DNA of 64,000 nucleotides, taken from NCBI RefSeq assembly GCF_050920415.1, contig NZ_CP169309.1. The stretch is one strand, 5' to 3'. The notes under the pieces are model-generated. The model was not told the origin of the DNA. It made no database searches and was given only the letters and a program-made list of their open reading frames with translations. Position numbers and translations under genes: made by a program. Positions 15,395 to 22,275 of the stretch are shown here, one piece after another (position 1 is the stretch's first letter; every line of letters starts with the position of its first letter). This stretch comes from Escherichia coli (GTDB lineage Bacteria; Pseudomonadota; Gammaproteobacteria; Enterobacterales; Enterobacteriaceae).

Positions 15395-17947
15395 TCAGAA
15401 CAATTCCTGTGCCTCGCCATTATCGATAATGGTCGTTCCCACCTCGTGCACCGCCTGTTGTGTCGGCTGTGTACCTTCGATGAAATACTCTTCGCGGCTG
15501 TTGCCACCATTAGCTAACTGCCCGGTGCTGCGATCGATATTCACCGTCACAATACCCGGCGGCGGCGTCAGCGGCTGTTCCGGCACGCCTTCAAGAACGG
15601 CTTTCATATAAGCGTCCCATGCAGGCTGGGCACTCTTGGCACCGCCTTCGTAACCTGAGATCTGATCTTTAATCGCTCCGGAAGCCGTTGTATGACCGAG
15701 ATTACGACGGTGATCATCAAAGCCAATCCAGACCGAGGTCACAACGCCCGGACCGTAACCCGAAAACCACGCATCTTTCGAACTGTTAGTGGTACCGGTT
15801 TTCCCGCCGATATCGCGACGCTGCAAATCACGACCTGCACGCCAGCCGGTACCCTGCCAGCCTGGCTCACCAAAGATATTGGTGTTCAAAGCACTCTTAA
15901 TCAGGAATGCCAGCGGAGTGTTGATGACGTGCGGTGCGTACTCCTGCGCGCCAGTCTTCGCGACTAACGCCTGATTCGCCTGCTCCAGCTGCGGCATTGG
16001 TACAGAAACATTCTGCTGCTCGCGGGAGATAGCGACATCTTCAACATCGTTATTTTCCAGCACGTTCGATTTCTGCGTATCACCGTAAATCACCGGAATA
16101 TCGCATTCCGGGCAGGCTACTTTCGGTTTCGCTTCGAAAATCACGCCGCCCTGATCGTTTTCAATTTTGCTGATAAACCACGGGTCCACCAGGAAGCCGC
16201 CGTTCGCCATTACCGCGTAGCCGCGCGCCACCTGCATTGGGGTGAAGGACGCTGAACCCAGCGCCAGCGATTCGGTGTGGACAATGTTTTGCGCCGGGAA
16301 GCCGAAGCGTTGCAGATATTCTGCAGCGTAGTCGACGCCCATCGCCCGCATTGCGCGTACCATCACCACGTTTTTCGACTGGCCCAGTCCCTGACGTAAG
16401 CGAATTGGACCGGCATACTGTGGTGGTGAGTTCTTCGGCTGCCAGTCAGAACCGGCACCTGCATCCCAGCGGGAAATTGGCACATCGTTCAACATACTTG
16501 CCAGCGTCAGACCTTTATCCATCGCCGCGGTGTAGAGGAACGGTTTGATGTTGGAACCTACCTGACGCAGTGCCTGGGTGGCGCGGTTAAACTTGCTCTG
16601 ATTGAAATCAAAGCCACCGACCAGCGCCATAACGGCACCGTTTTGCGGATTGATCGACACCAGCGCCGAGTTCACTTCCGGCACTTGTGCCAGCCACCAT
16701 GCATCGCCAACCTGACGAACCCAGATTTGCTGACCCGTTTGCAGAACATCGGTCACTTTACGCGGCGTCGGTCCCTGCTGAGTATCCGAACGGTAAGGAC
16801 GCGCCCAGCGAACGCCTTCCATACTCAATGCGACGGTCGACCCGTCCGCCAGCATCGCCGTCGCTTCCTGAGGATTGGCGCTGGTGACTGCGGCAGGCAG
16901 CAGCGGACCATAGGTCGGCAGCGCCTTCAGCGTATCGGTAATCTTGTTGTTATCCCACGCCGATTCGCCCACTTTCCACAGCACATTTGCCGGGCCGCGA
17001 TAGCCGTGGCGCATGTCGTAGTCCAGCACGTTATTACGTACCGCCTGCTGTGCGGCCTGCTGCACTTTGCGGGTGATGGTGGTGTAAATGCGATAACCGT
17101 CTTCATAGGCACTTTCGCCATAACGGTTATACATCTCCTGGCGCACCATTTCGCTCAGGTACGGCGCAGAGAAAGCAATCTCCGGCGCGTGATAGTTAGC
17201 GTTAATCGCCTCAGTGCGTGTCTGATCGAACTGTTGTTGGGTGATATACCCTTCATCCAGCATCCGCGACAGTACGACGTTACGCCGCGCGACGGCACGA
17301 TCCATTGAGTAGAGCGGATTAAAGGTGGAAGGCGCTTTCGGCAGCCCGGCTATCACCGCCATTTCGTTCAGCGTCAGTTGGTCGACCGTTTTACCGAAAT
17401 AGACTTGTGCCGCAGCACCGACACCATAGGCGCGGTAACCGAGGTAAATCTTGTTCAGATAAAGCTCGAGGATCTCGTCTTTCGTCAGCAACTGTTCAAT
17501 GCGAATCGCGAGGAAGACTTCCTTAATCTTACGCATCAGCGTGCGTTCTGGACTGAGGAAGAAGTTTCTCGCCAGCTGCTGGGTAATGGTACTCGCCCCT
17601 TGTGACGCGTGGCCGGAGAACAGCGCCACACTTGCCGCACGGAAGATCCCCACCGGGTCAACGCCGTGATGCTCGTAGAAGCGGCTGTCTTCCGTCGCGA
17701 TAAAGGCTTTCACCATCTCCGGCGGGATTTGATCCAACGTAACCGGGATACGACGTTTCTCACCGTATTGAGCAATCAGCTCGCCATCGGCGCTGTAAAT
17801 CTGCATCGGAATTTGCAGGCGAACATCTTTTAATGTCGCCACATCCGGCAGTTGTGGCTCGATGTAGCGGTATAGGCCATAAATCGAGCCTGCTCCCAGC
17901 AGAATGCAACAGACTGCAAGGATCAAAAAATACTTTACGAACTTCAC
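15395..17947 (-). CDS. mrcA: Penicillin-binding protein 1A (bifunctional glycosyltransferase/transpeptidase)
   Basis: Track ORF 858 aa; the 850 aa form starts at GTG 17947 (MKFVKYFLILAVCC...); an in-frame ATG lies at 17971. Transpeptidase serine motif region present. Confidence 0.93.
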   Translation of the reverse strand: MKFVKYFLILAVCCILLGAGSIYGLYRYIEPQLPDVATLKDVRLQIPMQIYSADGELIAQYGEKRRIPVTLDQIPPEMVKAFIATEDSRFYEHHGVDPVGIFRAASVALFSGHASQGASTITQQLARNFFLSPERTLMRKIKEVFLAIRIEQLLTKDEILELYLNKIYLGYRAYGVGAAAQVYFGKTVDQLTLNEMAVIAGLPKAPSTFNPLYSMDRAVARRNVVLSRMLDEGYITQQQFDQTRTEAINANYHAPEIAFSAPYLSEMVRQEMYNRYGESAYEDGYRIYTTITRKVQQAAQQAVRNNVLDYDMRHGYRGPANVLWKVGESAWDNNKITDTLKALPTYGPLLPAAVTSANPQEATAMLADGSTVALSMEGVRWARPYRSDTQQGPTPRKVTDVLQTGQQIWVRQVGDAWWLAQVPEVNSALVSINPQNGAVMALVGGFDFNQSKFNRATQALRQVGSNIKPFLYTAAMDKGLTLASMLNDVPISRWDAGAGSDWQPKNSPPQYAGPIRLRQGLGQSKNVVMVRAMRAMGVDYAAEYLQRFGFPAQNIVHTESLALGSASFTPMQVARGYAVMANGGFLVDPWFISKIENDQGGVIFEAKPKVACPECDIPVIYGDTQKSNVLENNDVEDVAISREQQNVSVPMPQLEQANQALVAKTGAQEYAPHVINTPLAFLIKSALNTNIFGEPGWQGTGWRAGRDLQRRDIGGKTGTTNSSKDAWFSGYGPGVVTSVWIGFDDHRRNLGHTTASGAIKDQISGYEGGAKSAQPAWDAYMKAVLEGVPEQPLTPPPGIVTVNIDRSTGQLANGGNSREEYFIEGTQPTQQAVHEVGTTIIDNGEAQELF

Positions 17948-18066: not shown

Positions 18067-18846
18067 ATGGCATTTAAGATCTGGCAAATTGGTTTGCATT
18101 TACAACAGCAAGAAGCGGTGGCGGTTGCGATCGTGCGGGGCGCAAAAGAATGCTTTTTGCAACGCTGGTGGCGGTTGCCGCTGGCGAACGACATAATCAA
18201 AGATGGGCGGATTGTCGATGCACAGCGGCTGGCTAAAACGTTGTTACCGTGGAGTCGCGAACTGCCGCAGCGTCATCACATTATGTTGGCGTTTCCCGCC
18301 AGTCGCACATTACAGCGGTCATTTCCGCGCCCGTCGATGTCCCTTGGTGAGCGGGAGCAAACGGCCTGGCTGTCCGGGACGATGGCCCGCGAGCTGGATA
18401 TGGATCCGGACTCCCTGCGCTTCGATTACAGCGAAGACTCACTCAGTCCCGCCTATAACGTGACTGCCGCGCAAAGCAAAGAGCTGGCAACGCTGCTTAC
18501 TTTGGCAGAAAGGTTGCGTGTTCATGTTAGTGCGATCACCCCGGATGCCAGTGCATTACAGCGATTCCTGCCTTTTTTACCTTCTCATCAGCAATGTCTG
18601 GCCTGGCGTGATAACGAACAGTGGCTGTGGGCGACGCGCTATAGCTGGGGGCGCAAACTGGCGGTGGGGATGACTAGCGCGAAGGAGCTGGCGGCAGCGT
18701 TATCCGTTGATCCCGAAAGCGTCGCGCTATGTGGCGAAGGCGGATTTGACCCGTGGGAGGCGGTTTCTGTTCGTCAGCCGCCGCTACCGCCGCCAGGTGG
18801 AGACTTTGCCATCGCGCTGGGGCTGGCGCTAGGGAAGGCGTACTGA
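18067..18846 (+). CDS. hofM: Type IV pilus / DNA-uptake assembly protein HofM (PilM-like)
   Basis: ATG 18067 with AAGGAG 10 nt upstream; MAFKIWQIGLHLQQQEAVAVAIV...; 259 aa. Confidence 0.9.
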   Translation: MAFKIWQIGLHLQQQEAVAVAIVRGAKECFLQRWWRLPLANDIIKDGRIVDAQRLAKTLLPWSRELPQRHHIMLAFPASRTLQRSFPRPSMSLGEREQTAWLSGTMARELDMDPDSLRFDYSEDSLSPAYNVTAAQSKELATLLTLAERLRVHVSAITPDASALQRFLPFLPSHQQCLAWRDNEQWLWATRYSWGRKLAVGMTSAKELAAALSVDPESVALCGEGGFDPWEAVSVRQPPLPPPGGDFAIALGLALGKAY

Positions 18847-19385
18847 TGAACCCGCCAATTAATTTTTTGCCCTGGCGACAGCAACGCCGGACCGCTTTTC
18901 TTCGTTTCTGGTTGCTGATGTTCGTTGCGCCTCTGCTGCTGACCGTCGGGATAACGCTAATATTGCGTCTGACAAGCAACGCCGAAGCTCGCGTAGATGC
19001 CGTTTTGCTTCAGGCGGAACAACAACTCGCCCACAGCTTACAAATAACGAAACCACGTTTGCTGGAGCTCCAACAAATTCGTGAGCAGCGTTTGCAAAGG
19101 CAGCGCCAGCGACAATTTACCCGTGACTGGCAATCTGCGCTGGAAGCACTGGCGGCGCTTTTACCCGAGCACGCCTGGCTGACAACGATAAGCTGGCAGC
19201 AGGGAACGCTGGAGATCAAGGGGCTAACAACAAGCATTACCGCGTTAAACGCGCTGGAAACGTCACTCCGCCAGGATGCTTCTTTTCATCTCAATCAGCG
19301 GGGGGCCACGCAGCAGGATGCGCAGGGACGCTGGCAATTTGAGTATCTGTTAACAAGGAAGGTTAGCGATGGACATGCTCTTTGA
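18846..19385 (+). CDS. hofN: HofN (PilN-like)
   Basis: ATG 18846 overlaps the hofM stop; MNPPINFLPWRQQRRTAFLRFWLLMFVAPLLL, single TM; 179 aa. Confidence 0.88.
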   Translation: MNPPINFLPWRQQRRTAFLRFWLLMFVAPLLLTVGITLILRLTSNAEARVDAVLLQAEQQLAHSLQITKPRLLELQQIREQRLQRQRQRQFTRDWQSALEALAALLPEHAWLTTISWQQGTLEIKGLTTSITALNALETSLRQDASFHLNQRGATQQDAQGRWQFEYLLTRKVSDGHAL

Positions 19386-19809
19386 CTGGTGGTTCGCCAC
19401 ATCACCCCGCCTCCGCCAGCTTTGCTGGGCATTCTGGTTGATGATGTTAGTTACGCTCATTTTTCTGTCATCGACACACCAGGAAGAGAGCGACGCATTA
19501 ATTCGACTACGGGCAAGTCATTACCAGCAGTGGGCCGCACTGTATCGCCTGGTAAACACCACTCCCTTCAGTGAGGAAAAAACGCAGCCCTTTTCGCCAC
19601 TGGATTTTCAGTTATCCGGCGCGCAACTGGTTTACTGGCATCCATCCGCGCAGGGAGGTGAGTTGGCGTTGAAAACGCTGTGGGAAGCAGTGCCGTCGGC
19701 ATTTACACGGCTGGCAGAGCGCAACGTCAGCGTGAGCCGTTTTTCGTTAAGCGTGGAAGGTGATGACCTTTTGTTCACGCTACAACTGGAGACGCCGCAT
19801 GAGGGTTAA
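19369..19809 (+). CDS. hofO: HofO (PilO-like)
   Basis: 146 aa, N-terminal TM WAFWLMMLVTLIFL; overlaps hofN and hofP. Confidence 0.85.
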   Translation: MDMLFDWWFATSPRLRQLCWAFWLMMLVTLIFLSSTHQEESDALIRLRASHYQQWAALYRLVNTTPFSEEKTQPFSPLDFQLSGAQLVYWHPSAQGGELALKTLWEAVPSAFTRLAERNVSVSRFSLSVEGDDLLFTLQLETPHEG

Positions 19810-20203
19810 ACGCTGGTTGTTGGCAGGTATTGCATTGTGCCTTTTAACCGGTATGCGTGACCCTTTTAAACCGCCGGAAGATCTATGCCGGATTAGCGAA
19901 CTTAGCCAGTGGCGCTATCAGGGGATGGTAGGGCGAGGCGAGCGCATCATCGGTGTAATAAAAGATGGGCAAAAAAAATGGCGACGGGTGCAGCAAAACG
20001 ATGTGCTGGAAAACGGCTGGACGATCTTACAGCTAACGCCAGACGCACTAACGCTGGGAACCGGGACAAACTGCGAACCGCCACAATGGTTGTGGCAACG
20101 GCAAGGAGATACAAATGAAGCAATGGATAGCCGCACTACTGTTGATGCTGATACCCGGCGTACAGGCGGCAAAGCCGCAAAAAGTGACGCTGATGGTGGA
20201 TGA
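19799..20203 (+). CDS. hofP: HofP (PilP-like lipoprotein)
   Basis: MRVKRWLLAGIALCLLTGMRDPFKP...; the 3' end overlaps hofQ by about 89 nt. Start is within a longer track ORF (19760). Confidence 0.8.
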   Translation: MRVKRWLLAGIALCLLTGMRDPFKPPEDLCRISELSQWRYQGMVGRGERIIGVIKDGQKKWRRVQQNDVLENGWTILQLTPDALTLGTGTNCEPPQWLWQRQGDTNEAMDSRTTVDADTRRTGGKAAKSDADGG

Positions 20204-21353
20204 CGTTCCGGTAGCTCAGGTGTTGCAGGCGCTGGCTGAACAGGAGAAGTTGAACCTGGTGGTGTCGCCAGACGTCAGCGGTACGGTGTCGTTACATCTA
20301 ACAGATGTTCCCTGGAAGCAAGCACTACAAACTGTAGTGAAAAGCGCCGGACTGATAACGCGTCAGGAGGGCAACATTCTCTCGGTGCATTCCGTTGCCT
20401 GGCAGAATGACAATATCGCCCGTCAGGAGGCGGAGCAGGCGCGGGCGCAGGCAAATCTGCCGCTGGAAAATCGCAGTATAACCCTGCAATACGCCGACGC
20501 GGGAGAACTGGCGAAAGCGGGGGAGAAGCTACTGAGTGCCAAAGGGAGTATGACCGTCGATAAACGCACCAATCGCCTTTTGCTGCGAGATAACAAAGCG
20601 GCGTTAAGCGCGCTTGAACAGTGGGTAGCGCAAATGGATCTGCCGGTCGGGCAGGTTGAGCTGTCGGCGCATATTGTCACCATTAATGAAAAAAGTTTGC
20701 GTGAGTTAGGCGTGAAATGGACGTTGGCTGATGCGCAACAAGCTGGTGGCGTTGGGCAAGTCACCACGCTTGGCAGCGACCTCTCCGTAGCGACGGCGAC
20801 AACGCATGTCGGTTTTAACATTGGACGCATCAACGGACGTTTACTGGATCTTGAGCTTTCCGCGCTCGAACAAAAACAGCAGCTGGATATTATCGCCAGT
20901 CCGCGTCTGCTGGCCTCACATCTTCAGCCTGCCAGCATTAAACAGGGGAGCGAAATTCCATATCAGGTTTCCAGCGGGGAAAGTGGCGCGACGTCGGTGG
21001 AATTTAAAGAGGCCGTCCTGGGGATGGAAGTTACGCCCACGGTGTTACAAAAAGGTCGCATCCGGCTGAAATTACACATCAGCCAGAACGTTCCGGGGCA
21101 GGTGCTACAGCAGGCCGATGGCGAAGTGCTGGCGATTGATAAGCAGGAGATCGAAACGCAGGTCGAGGTCAAAAGCGGAGAAACGTTGGCGCTGGGTGGC
21201 ATTTTTACCCGTAAAAATAAATCGGGTCAGGATAGCGTACCGTTGCTTGGCGACATTCCCTGGTTCGGGCAATTATTTCGTCATGACGGAAAAGAAGATG
21301 AACGACGCGAGTTAGTGGTGTTTATCACGCCACGACTGGTTTCCAGTGAGTAA
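20115..21353 (+). CDS. hofQ: Outer-membrane secretin HofQ (PilQ/ComE-like)
   Basis: 412 aa, signal peptide MKQWIAALLLMLIPGVQAAKP, secretin C-terminal domain. Confidence 0.93.
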   Translation: MKQWIAALLLMLIPGVQAAKPQKVTLMVDDVPVAQVLQALAEQEKLNLVVSPDVSGTVSLHLTDVPWKQALQTVVKSAGLITRQEGNILSVHSVAWQNDNIARQEAEQARAQANLPLENRSITLQYADAGELAKAGEKLLSAKGSMTVDKRTNRLLLRDNKAALSALEQWVAQMDLPVGQVELSAHIVTINEKSLRELGVKWTLADAQQAGGVGQVTTLGSDLSVATATTHVGFNIGRINGRLLDLELSALEQKQQLDIIASPRLLASHLQPASIKQGSEIPYQVSSGESGATSVEFKEAVLGMEVTPTVLQKGRIRLKLHISQNVPGQVLQQADGEVLAIDKQEIETQVEVKSGETLALGGIFTRKNKSGQDSVPLLGDIPWFGQLFRHDGKEDERRELVVFITPRLVSSE

Positions 21354-21753
21354 ACAGCCGTAAAAGCGGTAATGTTTTTACGCTGAACGTGTTTCATCTA
21401 TTTGACGCGCGCAGGTATTTAGCATACAAGGAGTACCGATTTGAGAGTTGGTGCTCTTCGCTGCCTGCGTTCCATGATGATGATTTATCATTCAGGCGGC
21501 ATTTTGCTGTCTTTTTTACGCTAATCTTACCCGGTGATTTATCGCCAGAGCGGTGGTAGCAAGGCAGCGCGCTTGCAGCGACCAGATATGCAGAGGGATG
21601 GGTGATTTATTCAGTTGCCAAACCCGCTGGAGTATTGAGATAATTTTCAGTCTGACTCTCGCAATATCTTATGAGGTTTCAGTTCATGTCCTGCGGCGCT
21701 CTCTGAGCGAAGCGGGTTTATCATTAACGAATAGTCTTAGTAGTACCGAAAAA

Positions 21754-22275
21754 ATGGCAGAGAAACGCAATATCTTTCTGGTTGGGCCTATGGGTGCCGG
21801 AAAAAGCACTATTGGGCGCCAGTTAGCTCAACAACTCAATATGGAATTTTACGATTCCGATCAAGAGATTGAGAAACGAACCGGAGCTGATGTGGGCTGG
21901 GTTTTCGATTTAGAAGGCGAAGAAGGCTTCCGCGATCGCGAAGAAAAGGTCATCAATGAGTTGACCGAGAAACAGGGTATTGTGCTGGCTACTGGCGGCG
22001 GCTCTGTGAAATCCCGCGAAACGCGTAACCGTCTTTCCGCTCGTGGCGTTGTCGTTTATCTTGAAACGACCATCGAAAAGCAACTTGCACGCACGCAGCG
22101 TGATAAAAAACGCCCGTTGCTGCACGTTGAAACACCGCCGCGTGAAGTTCTGGAAGCGTTGGCCAATGAACGCAATCCGCTGTATGAAGAGATTGCCGAC
22201 GTGACCATTCGTACTGATGATCAAAGCGCTAAAGTGGTTGCAAACCAGATTATTCACATGCTGGAAAGCAACTAA
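21754..22275 (+). CDS. aroK: Shikimate kinase I
   Basis: ATG 21754; [26 protein letters not shown] with P-loop; 173 aa. The track ORF starts at an upstream in-frame codon. Confidence 0.95.

Follow-up and report, generated by a model that had tools for sequence, protein, structure and literature searches.

In Escherichia coli, the hofP reading frame runs 89 nt into hofQ, the gene for a PilQ-family secretin. This arrangement raises the question of whether the hofP stop or the hofQ start lies elsewhere than annotated or whether both proteins are made from overlapping frames and, in that case, why the overlap is so long. The overlap is already known in the sense that it is present in the reference annotation, and Huber et al. 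2023 (PMC10666635) list it as -89 in their table of E. coli gene pairs. Searches of the literature on hofP, hofMNOPQ and yrfA-D turned up no account of the overlap and, in what was searchable, no data on HofP from expression studies, ribosome profiling or proteomics.

The hofMNOPQ locus

We analyzed a 64,000-nt stretch of E. coli DNA, referred to here as the window. The open reading frames and RefSeq annotation place the locus at mrcA / hofMNOPQ / aroK, with all five genes co-directional and in the order M-N-O-P-Q (Table 1), and together with Pfam and NCBIfam matches they confirm the original identification of the cluster. The hof locus was found in 5425 of 5426 complete E. coli genomes, and the mrcA-hofMNOPQ-aroK synteny also occurs in distant relatives. 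HofN matched PilN (PF05137; 38 bits versus a cut-off of 22.8), HofO matched PF25319 (89 bits), and HofP matched PF10748 over its full length. For HofM, the Pfam T2SSL match was sub-threshold (18.2 bits versus a cut-off of 25.5) and there was no NCBIfam match, with relatives showing weak PilM_2 matches. HofQ contains Secretin, Secretin_N, and STN domains, aligned to the NCBIfam HofQ model over positions 1-412 of 412 (856.6 bits) and to TIGR02515 PilQ (448 bits), and matched PilQ in the PDB (6w6m; E = 1.6e-74). The gene order is common to pilMNOPQ of Pseudomonas, Neisseria, and Myxococcus and to comABCDE of Haemophilus influenzae, as are the PilN family, the PilP-like beta domain, and the PilQ-family secretin with its N0 domain.

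Table 1. Coordinates of hofMNOPQ and associated features in the window
Feature	Position	Strand	Description
hofM upstream region, inside mrcA 5' coding sequence	17791-17912	+	Published yrfD (hofM) promoter fragment
hofM (PilM-like)	18067-18846	+	259 aa; ORF and RefSeq annotation
hofN (PilN domain)	18846-19385	+	179 aa; ORF, RefSeq annotation, Pfam
hofO	19369-19809	+	146 aa; ORF, RefSeq annotation, Pfam
hofP	19799-20203	+	134 aa; ORF, RefSeq annotation, Pfam HofP full length
hofQ Shine-Dalgarno AAGGAG	20103-20108	+	6-nt spacer to ATG; within hofP codons 102-104 (conserved R-Q/E-G)
hofQ, PilQ-family secretin	20115-21353	+	412 aa; Pfam, NCBIfam, PDB homology
hofQ signal-peptide coding region	20115-20168	+	MKQWIAALLLMLIPGVQA; probable cleavage after VQA; predicted from sequence features
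89-nt dual-coding overlap	20115-20203	+	hofQ codons 1-29 and first two bases of codon 30
hofP stop TGA	20201-20203	+	Last base of hofQ codon 29 (GAT) and first two bases of codon 30 (GAC), VDDVPV motif
Terminator-like hairpin and T-run	21357-21380	+	Just 3' of hofQ stop; candidate from consensus scan

Regulation of hof by Sxy/CRP-S matches that of the Haemophilus com operon according to the literature (PMC1635313, PMC3330819). The forward primer of Cameron & Redfield 2006 (PMC1635313) maps exactly at 17791-17810 and the complement of their reverse primer at ~17891-17912. The yrfD (hofM) promoter was reported to have two predicted CRP-S sites, to bind CRP weakly but specifically in EMSA, and to be induced 16-fold by Sxy (PMC1635313), and deletion of hofQ abolishes Sxy-dependent DNA uptake (PMC3330819). 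A search upstream of hofM for TGCGA-N6-TCGCA with at most two mismatches gave no match. At the other end of the operon, the number of terminator-like sites found in the region by consensus scan was not above the shuffled expectation.

The hofM/N, N/O, O/P, and P/Q overlaps measure 1, 17, 11, and 89 nt, respectively, and the hofM/hofN junction is TGATG. Identical gene boundaries are annotated in K-12 MG1655 (b3392/b3391) and in one 100%-identical RefSeq genome, so that the chain of overlaps and the 89-nt figure first read from the sequence hold in all their coordinates. On the hofP side, the overlap extends from the last two bases of codon 106 through codon 134 and the stop, with the hofQ frame at +1 relative to hofP. 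A co-directional overlap of 89 nt is far beyond the usual -4/-1/-8 nt classes; it belongs, as do the 11- and 17-nt overlaps of the operon, to the -8, -11, -14 ... series, which is given as the commoner phase among long same-strand overlaps in PMC2542354 and the gene-pair data of PMC10666635. A differently placed hofP stop, one of the options originally raised, finds no backing, as the annotated TGA is the first stop codon in the hofP frame.

The annotated hofQ start encodes a predicted signal peptide

A secretin needs a signal peptide, and sequence inspection of the HofQ N-terminus identified an n-region Lys, a hydrophobic core, and an AXA-type site, with a GRAVY of +0.78 over the overlap; homology to the PilQ N0 domain begins at residue 23. 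The original prediction had also allowed for a hofQ start placed elsewhere, including one past the hofP stop that would remove the overlap, and neither was borne out. The annotated ATG has a strong Shine-Dalgarno sequence, whose GGAG/GGA core is kept in related loci, opens the putative signal peptide, and is kept in each of the 54 related loci that could be analysed. The candidates Met11, Val24, Met27, Val28, and GTG 20220 onward were rejected, as they have no Shine-Dalgarno sequence and their signal peptide is truncated or absent; GTG 20220, the first in-frame start beyond the hofP stop, would also remove the first N0 strand, and all in-frame starts past that stop are without a signal peptide.

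Most long co-directional overlaps in databases have been judged to be start-codon mispredictions (Palleja 2008, PMC2478687), and hofP/hofQ could be read as such an artefact, with HofQ starting at Met27 (20193; an 11-nt overlap like that of hofO/hofP) or beyond the hofP stop. Measured upstream from the end of the hofP stop, ATG 20193 and GTG 20196 are 11 and 8 nt away, a coupling geometry used elsewhere in the operon, and in one relative (L059) the gene caller took a downstream start. However, the resulting 386-aa protein has lost the signal peptide even though an upstream start encoding MMRWISLLILLLPALVV is present, and among the E. coli candidates only 20115 gives a signal peptide or has a good Shine-Dalgarno sequence. 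The NCBIfam HofQ model matches from residue 1, and every lineage retains the character of a signal peptide in the hofQ frame while the hofP-frame peptide varies. Three loci (L048, L056, and L064) provide natural controls, in that hofP ends at the hofQ ATG (ATGA) and no longer covers the signal peptide, which is nonetheless encoded. A misplaced start is thus barely conceivable, and on these sequence features the annotated hofQ start (20115) is sound. Palleja et al. 2008 asked for ortholog-matched gene ends and for the lack of a plausible downstream start in the downstream gene; at hofP/hofQ the ends match among orthologs (HofP lengths; hofQ start aligned in 54 loci) and hofQ has no plausible downstream start. 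Of the options originally offered, synthesis of both proteins from overlapping frames is the only one to survive, as judged from the genomic comparisons.

Conservation of the long overlap

Comparison of the hofP/hofQ boundaries across enterobacteria confirmed them, with an overlap of 80-140 nt, mostly 89 nt, at 52 of 54 loci. Two loci too short for all of hofQ (L061 and L065) and the C. koseri locus with a disrupted hofQ (L008) were left out of the quantitative tests. HofP is 133-137 aa long in Escherichia, Salmonella, and Citrobacter, and in nearly all Enterobacteriaceae loci hofP stops at the same D-D junction as in E. coli or at the adjacent V-D. Four distant relatives with a readable junction, whose HofQ is ~50-70% identical to that of E. 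coli, have overlaps of 62-89 nt in the same phase, and two further incomplete contigs from distant relatives exhibit the same hofP read-through; in the distant relatives the stops fall at N-E, D-K, N-D, S-N, D-E, or V-D junctions. The initial description of the overlap as unusually long consequently holds against genes in general but not within the HofP/HofQ family, where such a length is the norm.

A long C-terminal tail is found in 67 of 79 HofP-family representatives, and the remaining 12 have the short form. The ATGA forms sit among long-form Enterobacter relatives, to which their HofQ is 77-82% identical, and a single base, in the spacer from GGA to ATG, separates the two junction types. 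Three lineages have lost the HofP tail altogether, with the operon intact. The reverse polarity, in which the ATGA form is ancestral and the long form a frameshift derivative, was rejected for the Enterobacteriaceae on the preponderance of long forms, their presence in the most distant relatives, and the nesting of ATGA forms among Enterobacter-like sequences. The sequences thus point towards a long overlap that is ancestral and typical for the HofP family. A comparable case is holD-rimI (PMC2478687), likewise a bona fide co-directional overlap with ortholog-supported ends kept across enterobacterial genera; its length is 32 nt in E. coli (89 nt for hofP-hofQ) and reaches 56 nt in Salmonella and Yersinia (80-140 nt for hofP-hofQ in relatives), and hofP-hofQ was not found in the supplementary lists of PMC2478687.

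Start-codon phase and signal-peptide codons can account for the length of the overlap

The hofQ ATG lies in phase +1 of hofP (hofP codons AAT-GAA), so that no stop codon can overlap it and an ATGA or TGATG coupling junction is impossible. In the hofP frame, a stop arises only where T is the last base of a hofQ codon and the next codon opens with AA, AG, or GA (Lys, Asn, Ser, Arg, Asp, or Glu). Such junctions are nearly absent from the hydrophobic signal peptide (E. coli has two), so that the hofP frame stays open across the entire signal-peptide region until the first suitable polar pair, GAT-GAC in the conserved VDD where the HofQ N0 domain begins, yields TGA. The first 28 hofQ codons contain a mean of 0.13 stops in the hofP-type frame versus 3.97 in the other frame, and the rest of hofQ contains 1.54 per 28 codons in the hofP-type frame. 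Under a neutral codon model for E. coli, the probability of an earlier stop is 0.32, of a stop at the observed site 0.44, and of a later stop 0.24, making the observed hofP stop the single most likely, or modal, site. A purely compositional null, as in the accounts of Sabath, Graur & Landan 2008 and, in the text consulted, Huber et al. 2023, suffices for hofP/hofQ too; the cause here is local, in the downstream signal-peptide codons, which was not found stated in the parts consulted of PMC2542354 or PMC10666635.

We propose that hofQ initiates on its own at AAGGAG-N6-ATG, inside the last codons of the hofP PilP-like domain. As the phase +1 ATG rules out a short coupling junction, the hofP frame would stay open into hofQ, read through the signal-peptide codons, and stop at the VDD GAT-GAC, leaving a HofP tail that is most probably not a functional module but a tolerated by-product. 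In a few lineages, single-base changes in the A-rich spacer ahead of the ATG would toggle the long form to the ATGA form, and any expression of the operon would entail translation of hofP and hofQ from overlapping frames, the HofP tail included. Huber 2023 (PMC10666635) limits termination-reinitiation to overlaps or gaps a few nucleotides long, so it cannot serve a hofQ start 89 nt upstream of the hofP stop, and hofQ initiation is probably independent of hofP termination. On balance we favour the reading in which both boundaries are right, the frames are translated in overlap, and the overlap length is a passive by-product of the signal-peptide codons.

HofP is predicted to carry a PilP-type domain and a disordered tail

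HofP consists of an N-terminal hydrophobic helix (residues 2-16), a PilP-like beta domain (39-100), and a predicted-disordered tail (~101-134). In its AlphaFold2 model, residues 31-100 have a pLDDT of ~90 and the tail one of 43-56, and the top Foldseek PDB matches were to PilP (2ivw, 3jc8_P, 2lc4, and 2y4x) and the GspC HR domain (3oss_C), such that HofP, as modelled, carries a PilP-type beta-sandwich (HR) fold. The PilP-type HR domain docks on the secretin N0 domain. PilP is a lipoprotein, whereas sequence inspection of HofP found no convincing lipobox: the E. coli protein has IALC with Leu at -1, the Cys is not kept in Salmonella or Citrobacter, and the conserved segment is LTG-MRDPF, or AxA-RDPF in distant relatives. 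The HofP family (PF10748) also differs from canonical PilP in its 24-70-residue tail encoded inside the secretin signal-peptide region, and HofQ differs from PilQ in having no AMIN domains and in its length (412 aa versus 571-901 aa in solved PilQ structures). The 29 C-terminal HofP residues that form the overlap tail in E. coli are hydrophilic and rich in Gly, Ala, Asp, and Arg, and across 57 loci the GRAVY of the overlap is -1.25 in the HofP frame versus +0.99 in the HofQ frame.

Tests for selection on the HofP tail

Alternatively, the overlap may be maintained dual coding, in which the HofP tail is functional, for example as a flexible contact with HofQ or peptidoglycan or as a translational device that adjusts the HofP:HofQ ratio, and the open frame and the VDD stop position are kept by selection. 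The persistence of the long form where HofQ is only ~50% identical to that of E. coli, and in 85% of family representatives, is in keeping with this. Synonymous diversity at hofQ codons 2-30 was below that of every contiguous window of the remaining gene in three clades (0/345, 0/333, and 0/322), with a ratio to the rest of hofQ of 0.37-0.73, and in Citrobacter and Enterobacter it stepped up at ~codon 30, near the hofP stop. Among the control genes (hofM, hofN, hofO, hofP, aroK, and mrcA), the 5' ends of the internal operon genes hofN, hofO, and hofP had no such reduction, which also favours dual coding, but the non-overlapped 5' ends of hofM, mrcA, and aroK had an equal or stronger loss (ratios 0.05-0.83). 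The signal is thus not specific, and we do not take it to prove dual-coding selection. Two conserved junctions speak for selection: in the Enterobacter group a Phe-Ser junction is encoded without exception by TTC-AGC even though Phe is usually TTT (probability of an earlier stop, 0.86), and hofQ codon 29 is GAT almost everywhere, with a diversity of 0-0.1 versus 0.28-0.49 at codon 30.

For stop avoidance in the hofP frame, a pooled geometric null (0.30 per potential site) made early stops look under-represented. It was superseded by amino-acid-specific probabilities and then by a lineage-aware simulation, under which the excess was no longer significant (P = 0.07-0.12). These P values lean toward selection.

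The sequence of the tail argues against a dual-coding role, as it is poorly conserved, predicted to be disordered, and of the composition that shifted signal-peptide codons dictate. The three tail-less lineages keep an intact operon, and canonical PilP has no such tail, with pilP and pilQ (COG3168-COG4796) seemingly ~+13 nt apart if the relevant column of the Huber 2023 supplement (PMC10666635) is read as spacing. Evidence for selection on the tail is equivocal overall; we regard maintained dual coding as possible but unlikely, and the HofP tail as probably functionless. Conservation of the overlap for an RNA element, that is, an mRNA structure controlling hofQ translation rather than either protein frame, would agree with the reduced synonymous variation at the hofQ 5' end but is highly improbable and was rejected, as the predicted fold of the E. 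coli region is no more stable than that of shuffled sequence (z = -0.32) and RNAalifold of 17 diverse sequences gave a near-absent consensus (-0.8 kcal/mol, 3 pairs, no covariation).

Discussion

The hofP/hofQ pair is ordinary and annotated, yet it is a genuine long co-directional overlap, and the simplest account of it is a harmless consequence of the hofP frame running on across the hofQ signal-peptide codons. It is doubtful that the tail is selectively maintained and that hofP ribosomes crossing the hofQ start set the stoichiometry of the PilP-like protein to the secretin by a mode other than termination-reinitiation; if this were true, hofP-hofQ would be the longest conserved functional co-directional overlap of two bona fide E. 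coli cellular genes.

The overlap is a well-supported counter-example to the rule that co-directional overlaps exceeding ~60 nt are start-codon errors (Palleja 2008, PMC2478687). This matters for annotation, in that at least one automatic gene call (L059) wrongly clipped a secretin signal peptide to avoid the overlap. More generally, wherever the 5' end of a downstream gene encodes a signal peptide and the ATG is in phase +1 of the upstream gene, the upstream frame would run through the signal peptide by default, adding a hydrophilic, disordered-type tail that may be cheap to tolerate. For the hof operon, this suggests that hofQ translation is not coupled to that of hofP via termination-reinitiation, unlike the other junctions of the operon, and that mutations in the HofQ signal peptide would alter HofP too.

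The hofP/hofQ overlap and its boundaries

By ORF listing and direct reading, ~18-21.4 kb of the window is the E. coli mrcA / hofMNOPQ / aroK-aroB region, in which the successive hof genes overlap by 1 (hofM/N), 17 (N/O), 11 (O/P), and 89 nt (P/Q). The original prediction of a hofMNOPQ cluster with chained overlaps, the last of them 89 nt long, is confirmed, as our ORF reading agrees with existing annotation: identical boundaries, including the 89-nt overlap, are found in RefSeq/PGAP and in the K-12 MG1655 record (b3392/b3391). The overlap is thus already part of the reference annotation, and Huber et al. 2023 (PMC10666635) list the pair at -89 in their table of E. coli gene pairs. At an identity of at least 95%, the 3.6-kb hof stretch was recovered from 5425 of 5426 complete genomes of E. 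coli. Using Pfam and NCBIfam, matches were obtained to PilN, HofO, HofP (full-length), and the PilQ-family secretins, with HofQ covering positions 1-412 of 412 of the NCBIfam HofQ model; HofM gave a sub-threshold family match only. A terminator-like hairpin and T-run lie at 21357-21380, 4 nt past the hofQ stop and before a 400-nt gap to aroK.

Coordinates of the hof genes and of the hofQ ribosome-binding site
Feature	Coordinates	Strand	Basis or remark
hofM	18067-18846	+	ORF listing, direct reading
hofN	18846-19385	+	ORF listing, direct reading
hofO	19369-19809	+	ORF listing, direct reading
hofP	19799-20203	+	ORF listing, direct reading
hofQ	20115-21353	+	ORF listing, direct reading
hofQ Shine-Dalgarno AAGGAG	20103-20108	+	6-nt spacer to ATG at 20115

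The original prediction also offered, as alternatives to two proteins made from overlapping frames, that the hofP stop or the hofQ start is misplaced. Against this, the TGA at 20201-20203 is the first stop in the hofP frame, and the hofQ start is conserved and preceded by a strong Shine-Dalgarno sequence. Read from 20115, hofQ opens with a predicted textbook signal peptide, MKQWIAALLLMLIPGVQA/AK, and from residue 23 onwards the protein is homologous to the N0 domain in solved PilQ structures. The alternative in-frame starts at Leu10, Met11, Val24, Met27, Val28, and then GTG 20220 were rejected, as none has a Shine-Dalgarno sequence and each truncates or removes the signal peptide; starts past the hofP stop, the case that would have abolished the overlap, lack both elements and would additionally delete the first N0 strand. 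Comparison of the boundaries across enterobacteria, as the original prediction had suggested, revealed that the hofQ start aligns with that of E. coli and is followed by a signal peptide in all 54 loci with an intact junction, the start codon being GTG in the E. cloacae group and ATG otherwise. Three loci from other bacteria (L048, L056, and L064) serve as natural controls, in which hofP ends at the hofQ start (ATGA form) and a similar signal peptide is still encoded. Because these loci keep the signal peptide without hofP coverage, and given the conserved start and Shine-Dalgarno sequence, a misannotated boundary was rejected. Judged from these comparisons, the hofQ start at 20115 is secure and well supported. 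In L059 (Logan contig SRR12267831, region 2822-2916), the automatic call has hofQ starting past the hofP stop, for a 386-aa product without a signal peptide. A start at an ATG further upstream would give MMRWISLLILLLPALVV... and an overlap with hofP of about 77 nt; the gene caller seems to have dodged the long overlap and cut off a genuine signal peptide.

The long overlap is a property of the Hof branch

Fifty-five loci of other species were fetched by HofP similarity, with patterns from the N-terminal half only, from Escherichia, Salmonella, Citrobacter, Enterobacter, Lelliottia, Huaxiibacter, Trabulsiella, Pseudenterobacter, Leclercia, and one MAG. The overlap measured 80-140 nt in 52/54 loci, mostly exactly 89, and 4 nt in 2/54. 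An exhaustive profile search gave 133 HofP-family cluster representatives, and among the 79 that are full-length the split was clearly bimodal: 67 extend 24-70 residues past the conserved second Cys (long form, in which hofP reads through to encode a C-terminal tail) and 12 stop 8-17 residues past it. Distant long-form members, with HofQ only about 50-70% identical to that of E. coli, keep the mrcA-hofMNOPQ-aroK synteny on contigs of sufficient length. The four distant relatives with a readable junction have overlaps of 62-89 nt in the E. coli relative frame that extend into the hofQ signal-peptide region, as does the hofP read-through on two incomplete contigs (L061 and L065), and distant-relative hofP genes stop at N-E, D-K, N-D, S-N, D-E, or V-D junctions just past the signal peptide.

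The HofQ proteins of the two enterobacterial ATGA forms are 77-82% identical to long-form Enterobacter sequences, which nests these forms among long-form lineages, and a single base in the A-rich spacer from the Shine-Dalgarno GGA to the ATG sets their junctions apart (8 nt versus 7 or 10). This nesting and the one-base difference suggest that the long form is ancestral in this group, with what looks like occasional one-base toggling to ATGA. The long overlap is a property of the Hof branch, since the spacing of canonical PilP-PilQ pairs is apparently about +13 nt in 281 species, on our reading of the relevant column in the supplement of Huber et al. (PMC10666635). An 89-nt overlap falls in the -8, -11, -14 ... 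series, which is the more frequent phase among long overlaps (Huber et al. 2023). For Palleja et al. 2008 (PMC2478687), the longest real overlap was holD-rimI (32-56 bp); hofP-hofQ is not in their lists, possibly due to the then-hypothetical status of yrfA, and would count as real by their criteria because both ends agree with orthologs.

Two loci deviate at this junction. In L030 (Enterobacter sp. ENT03), hofQ codon 29 is GAC, not GAT, which removes the usual TGA; hofP continues until the overlap reaches 140 nt, and its tail is 17 residues longer. In L008 (Citrobacter koseri NCTC10786), the best hofQ-like frame begins ~230 nt downstream of the expected position, in the hofP frame, which suggests that hofQ is frameshifted or disrupted in this assembly.

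Signal-peptide codons probably account for the overlap length

The hofQ frame is the hofP frame +1, such that a hofP codon comprises the third base of one hofQ codon and two bases of the next. As the hofQ ATG is embedded in the hofP codons AAT-GAA, no hofP stop can overlap the hofQ start. A hofP-frame stop instead requires a T-ending hofQ codon followed by one whose first two bases are AA, AG, or GA (Lys, Asn, Ser-AGY, Arg-AGR, Asp, or Glu), which the signal-peptide residues Leu, Ala, Val, Ile, Met, Pro, and Gly are unable to supply. Across 60 loci, hofQ codons 1-28 contain on average 0.13 stops in the hofP-type frame versus 3.97 in the other frame, compared with 1.54 per 28 codons over the remainder of hofQ. 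Just two E. coli junctions, Ala19-Lys20 and Val28-Asp29, could give an earlier hofP stop. A neutral model with amino-acid-specific T-ending-codon probabilities from 4169 matched junctions elsewhere in hofQ gave P = 0.32 for an earlier stop, 0.44 for the observed Asp29-Asp30, and 0.24 for a later one; 89 nt is therefore the modal neutral outcome. hofP would read through the hydrophobic signal-peptide codons by default, ending at Asp29-Asp30. This compositional explanation fits quantitatively, and a passive model, in which signal-peptide codons set the overlap length and the HofP tail is merely tolerated, is sufficient.

Fold of HofP and possible selection on its tail

In an AlphaFold2 model of HofP built from a 79-sequence alignment, residues 2-16 form an N-terminal helix and residues 39-100 a confident beta domain (pLDDT about 90 over 31-100), followed by a tail of low confidence (pLDDT 43-56). 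Among PDB structures, the domain best matched PilP (2ivw, 3jc8 chain P, 2lc4, and 2y4x) and the GspC HR domain. The hofQ ATG lies at HofP residues 106-107, directly after the beta domain, and thus the overlap encodes the tail only. Over 57 loci, the GRAVY of the overlap is +0.99 when read as hofQ and -1.25 when read as hofP. The tail composition (18% Gly, 16% Ala, 11% Asp, and 10% Arg) is the expected product of frame-shifted Leu, Ala, Val, and Ile codons, and such a tail should be cheap to tolerate. At the other end, the HofP N-terminus (19799-19870) appears to have no convincing lipobox, unlike PilP lipoproteins; Cys14 (IALC) of E. coli HofP is not conserved, and the conserved junction, LTG-MRDPF or, in distant relatives, AxA-RDPF, looks more like a signal-peptidase I site or uncleaved anchor. 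Rare E. coli hofP alleles (variants P0001, P0010, and P0040) are altered internally, by a duplication (161 aa) or by deletions (107 and 78 aa), with the tail still in frame, and a 115-aa form with few members ends inside the tail, which may be a contig end.

Selection for the tail itself would predict avoidance of hofP-frame stops and reduced synonymous variation in hofQ. With lineages collapsed to single representatives at 85, 90, or 95% HofQ identity, the summed log-probability of a frame open up to the observed stop was below the neutral mean, though not significantly (P = 0.12, 0.12, and 0.07). Synonymous-codon diversity at hofQ codons 2-30 versus the rest was 0.09 versus 0.25 in Escherichia, 0.22 versus 0.42 in Citrobacter, and about 0.33 versus 0.45 in the Enterobacter group; outside these codons, hofQ has no contiguous window with a value as low (0/345, 0/333, and 0/322), and diversity rises stepwise near codon 30 in two clades. 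This matches what dual coding predicts, a possible reading weakened by controls without protein overlap: over the first 30 codons, diversity ratios were 0.56-0.83 for hofM, 0.05-0.38 for mrcA, and 0-0.16 for aroK, reductions similar to or stronger than that of hofQ, while none was found in the first 30 codons of hofN, hofO, or hofP. As stop avoidance was not significant and non-overlapped 5' ends behave alike, selection on the HofP tail is possible but less likely than not. Conservation of the overlap through RNA structure is not supported, with a folding z of -0.32, no consensus structure, and no covariation.

Two of the control genes have features of their own. Synonymous variation in the first ~50 codons of mrcA (17791-17947, minus strand) is 0.00-0.24, versus about 0.2-0.4 further in, and this near-invariance spans Escherichia, Citrobacter, and Enterobacter. 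Because the stretch coincides with the published yrfD/hofM promoter fragment (primer mapped at 17791), which carries two predicted CRP-S sites (PMC1635313), the divergent hofM promoter is apparently located within mrcA and may place a constraint on its coding sequence. Diversity over aroK codons 1-60 (21754-21935) is 0.00-0.12, essentially zero across three genera; the gene as a whole shows much less synonymous variation than the hof genes do, which could reflect high expression or an embedded element.

Implications for translation of hofQ

The hofM/N, N/O, and O/P junctions are compatible with local coupling. Reinitiation efficiency drops steeply within tens of nucleotides according to Huber et al. 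2023 (PMC10666635), from which it would follow that hofQ must start de novo, presumably at its own strong Shine-Dalgarno sequence. Ribosomes translating hofP would cross the hofQ start site and terminate 29 codons later, and their passage could keep this site unfolded, or transiently occlude it. The feature itself was annotated before; beyond the known annotation, our analysis adds that the overlap is family-wide, that the hofQ start is secure, and that a compositional explanation based on the signal peptide fits its length quantitatively.
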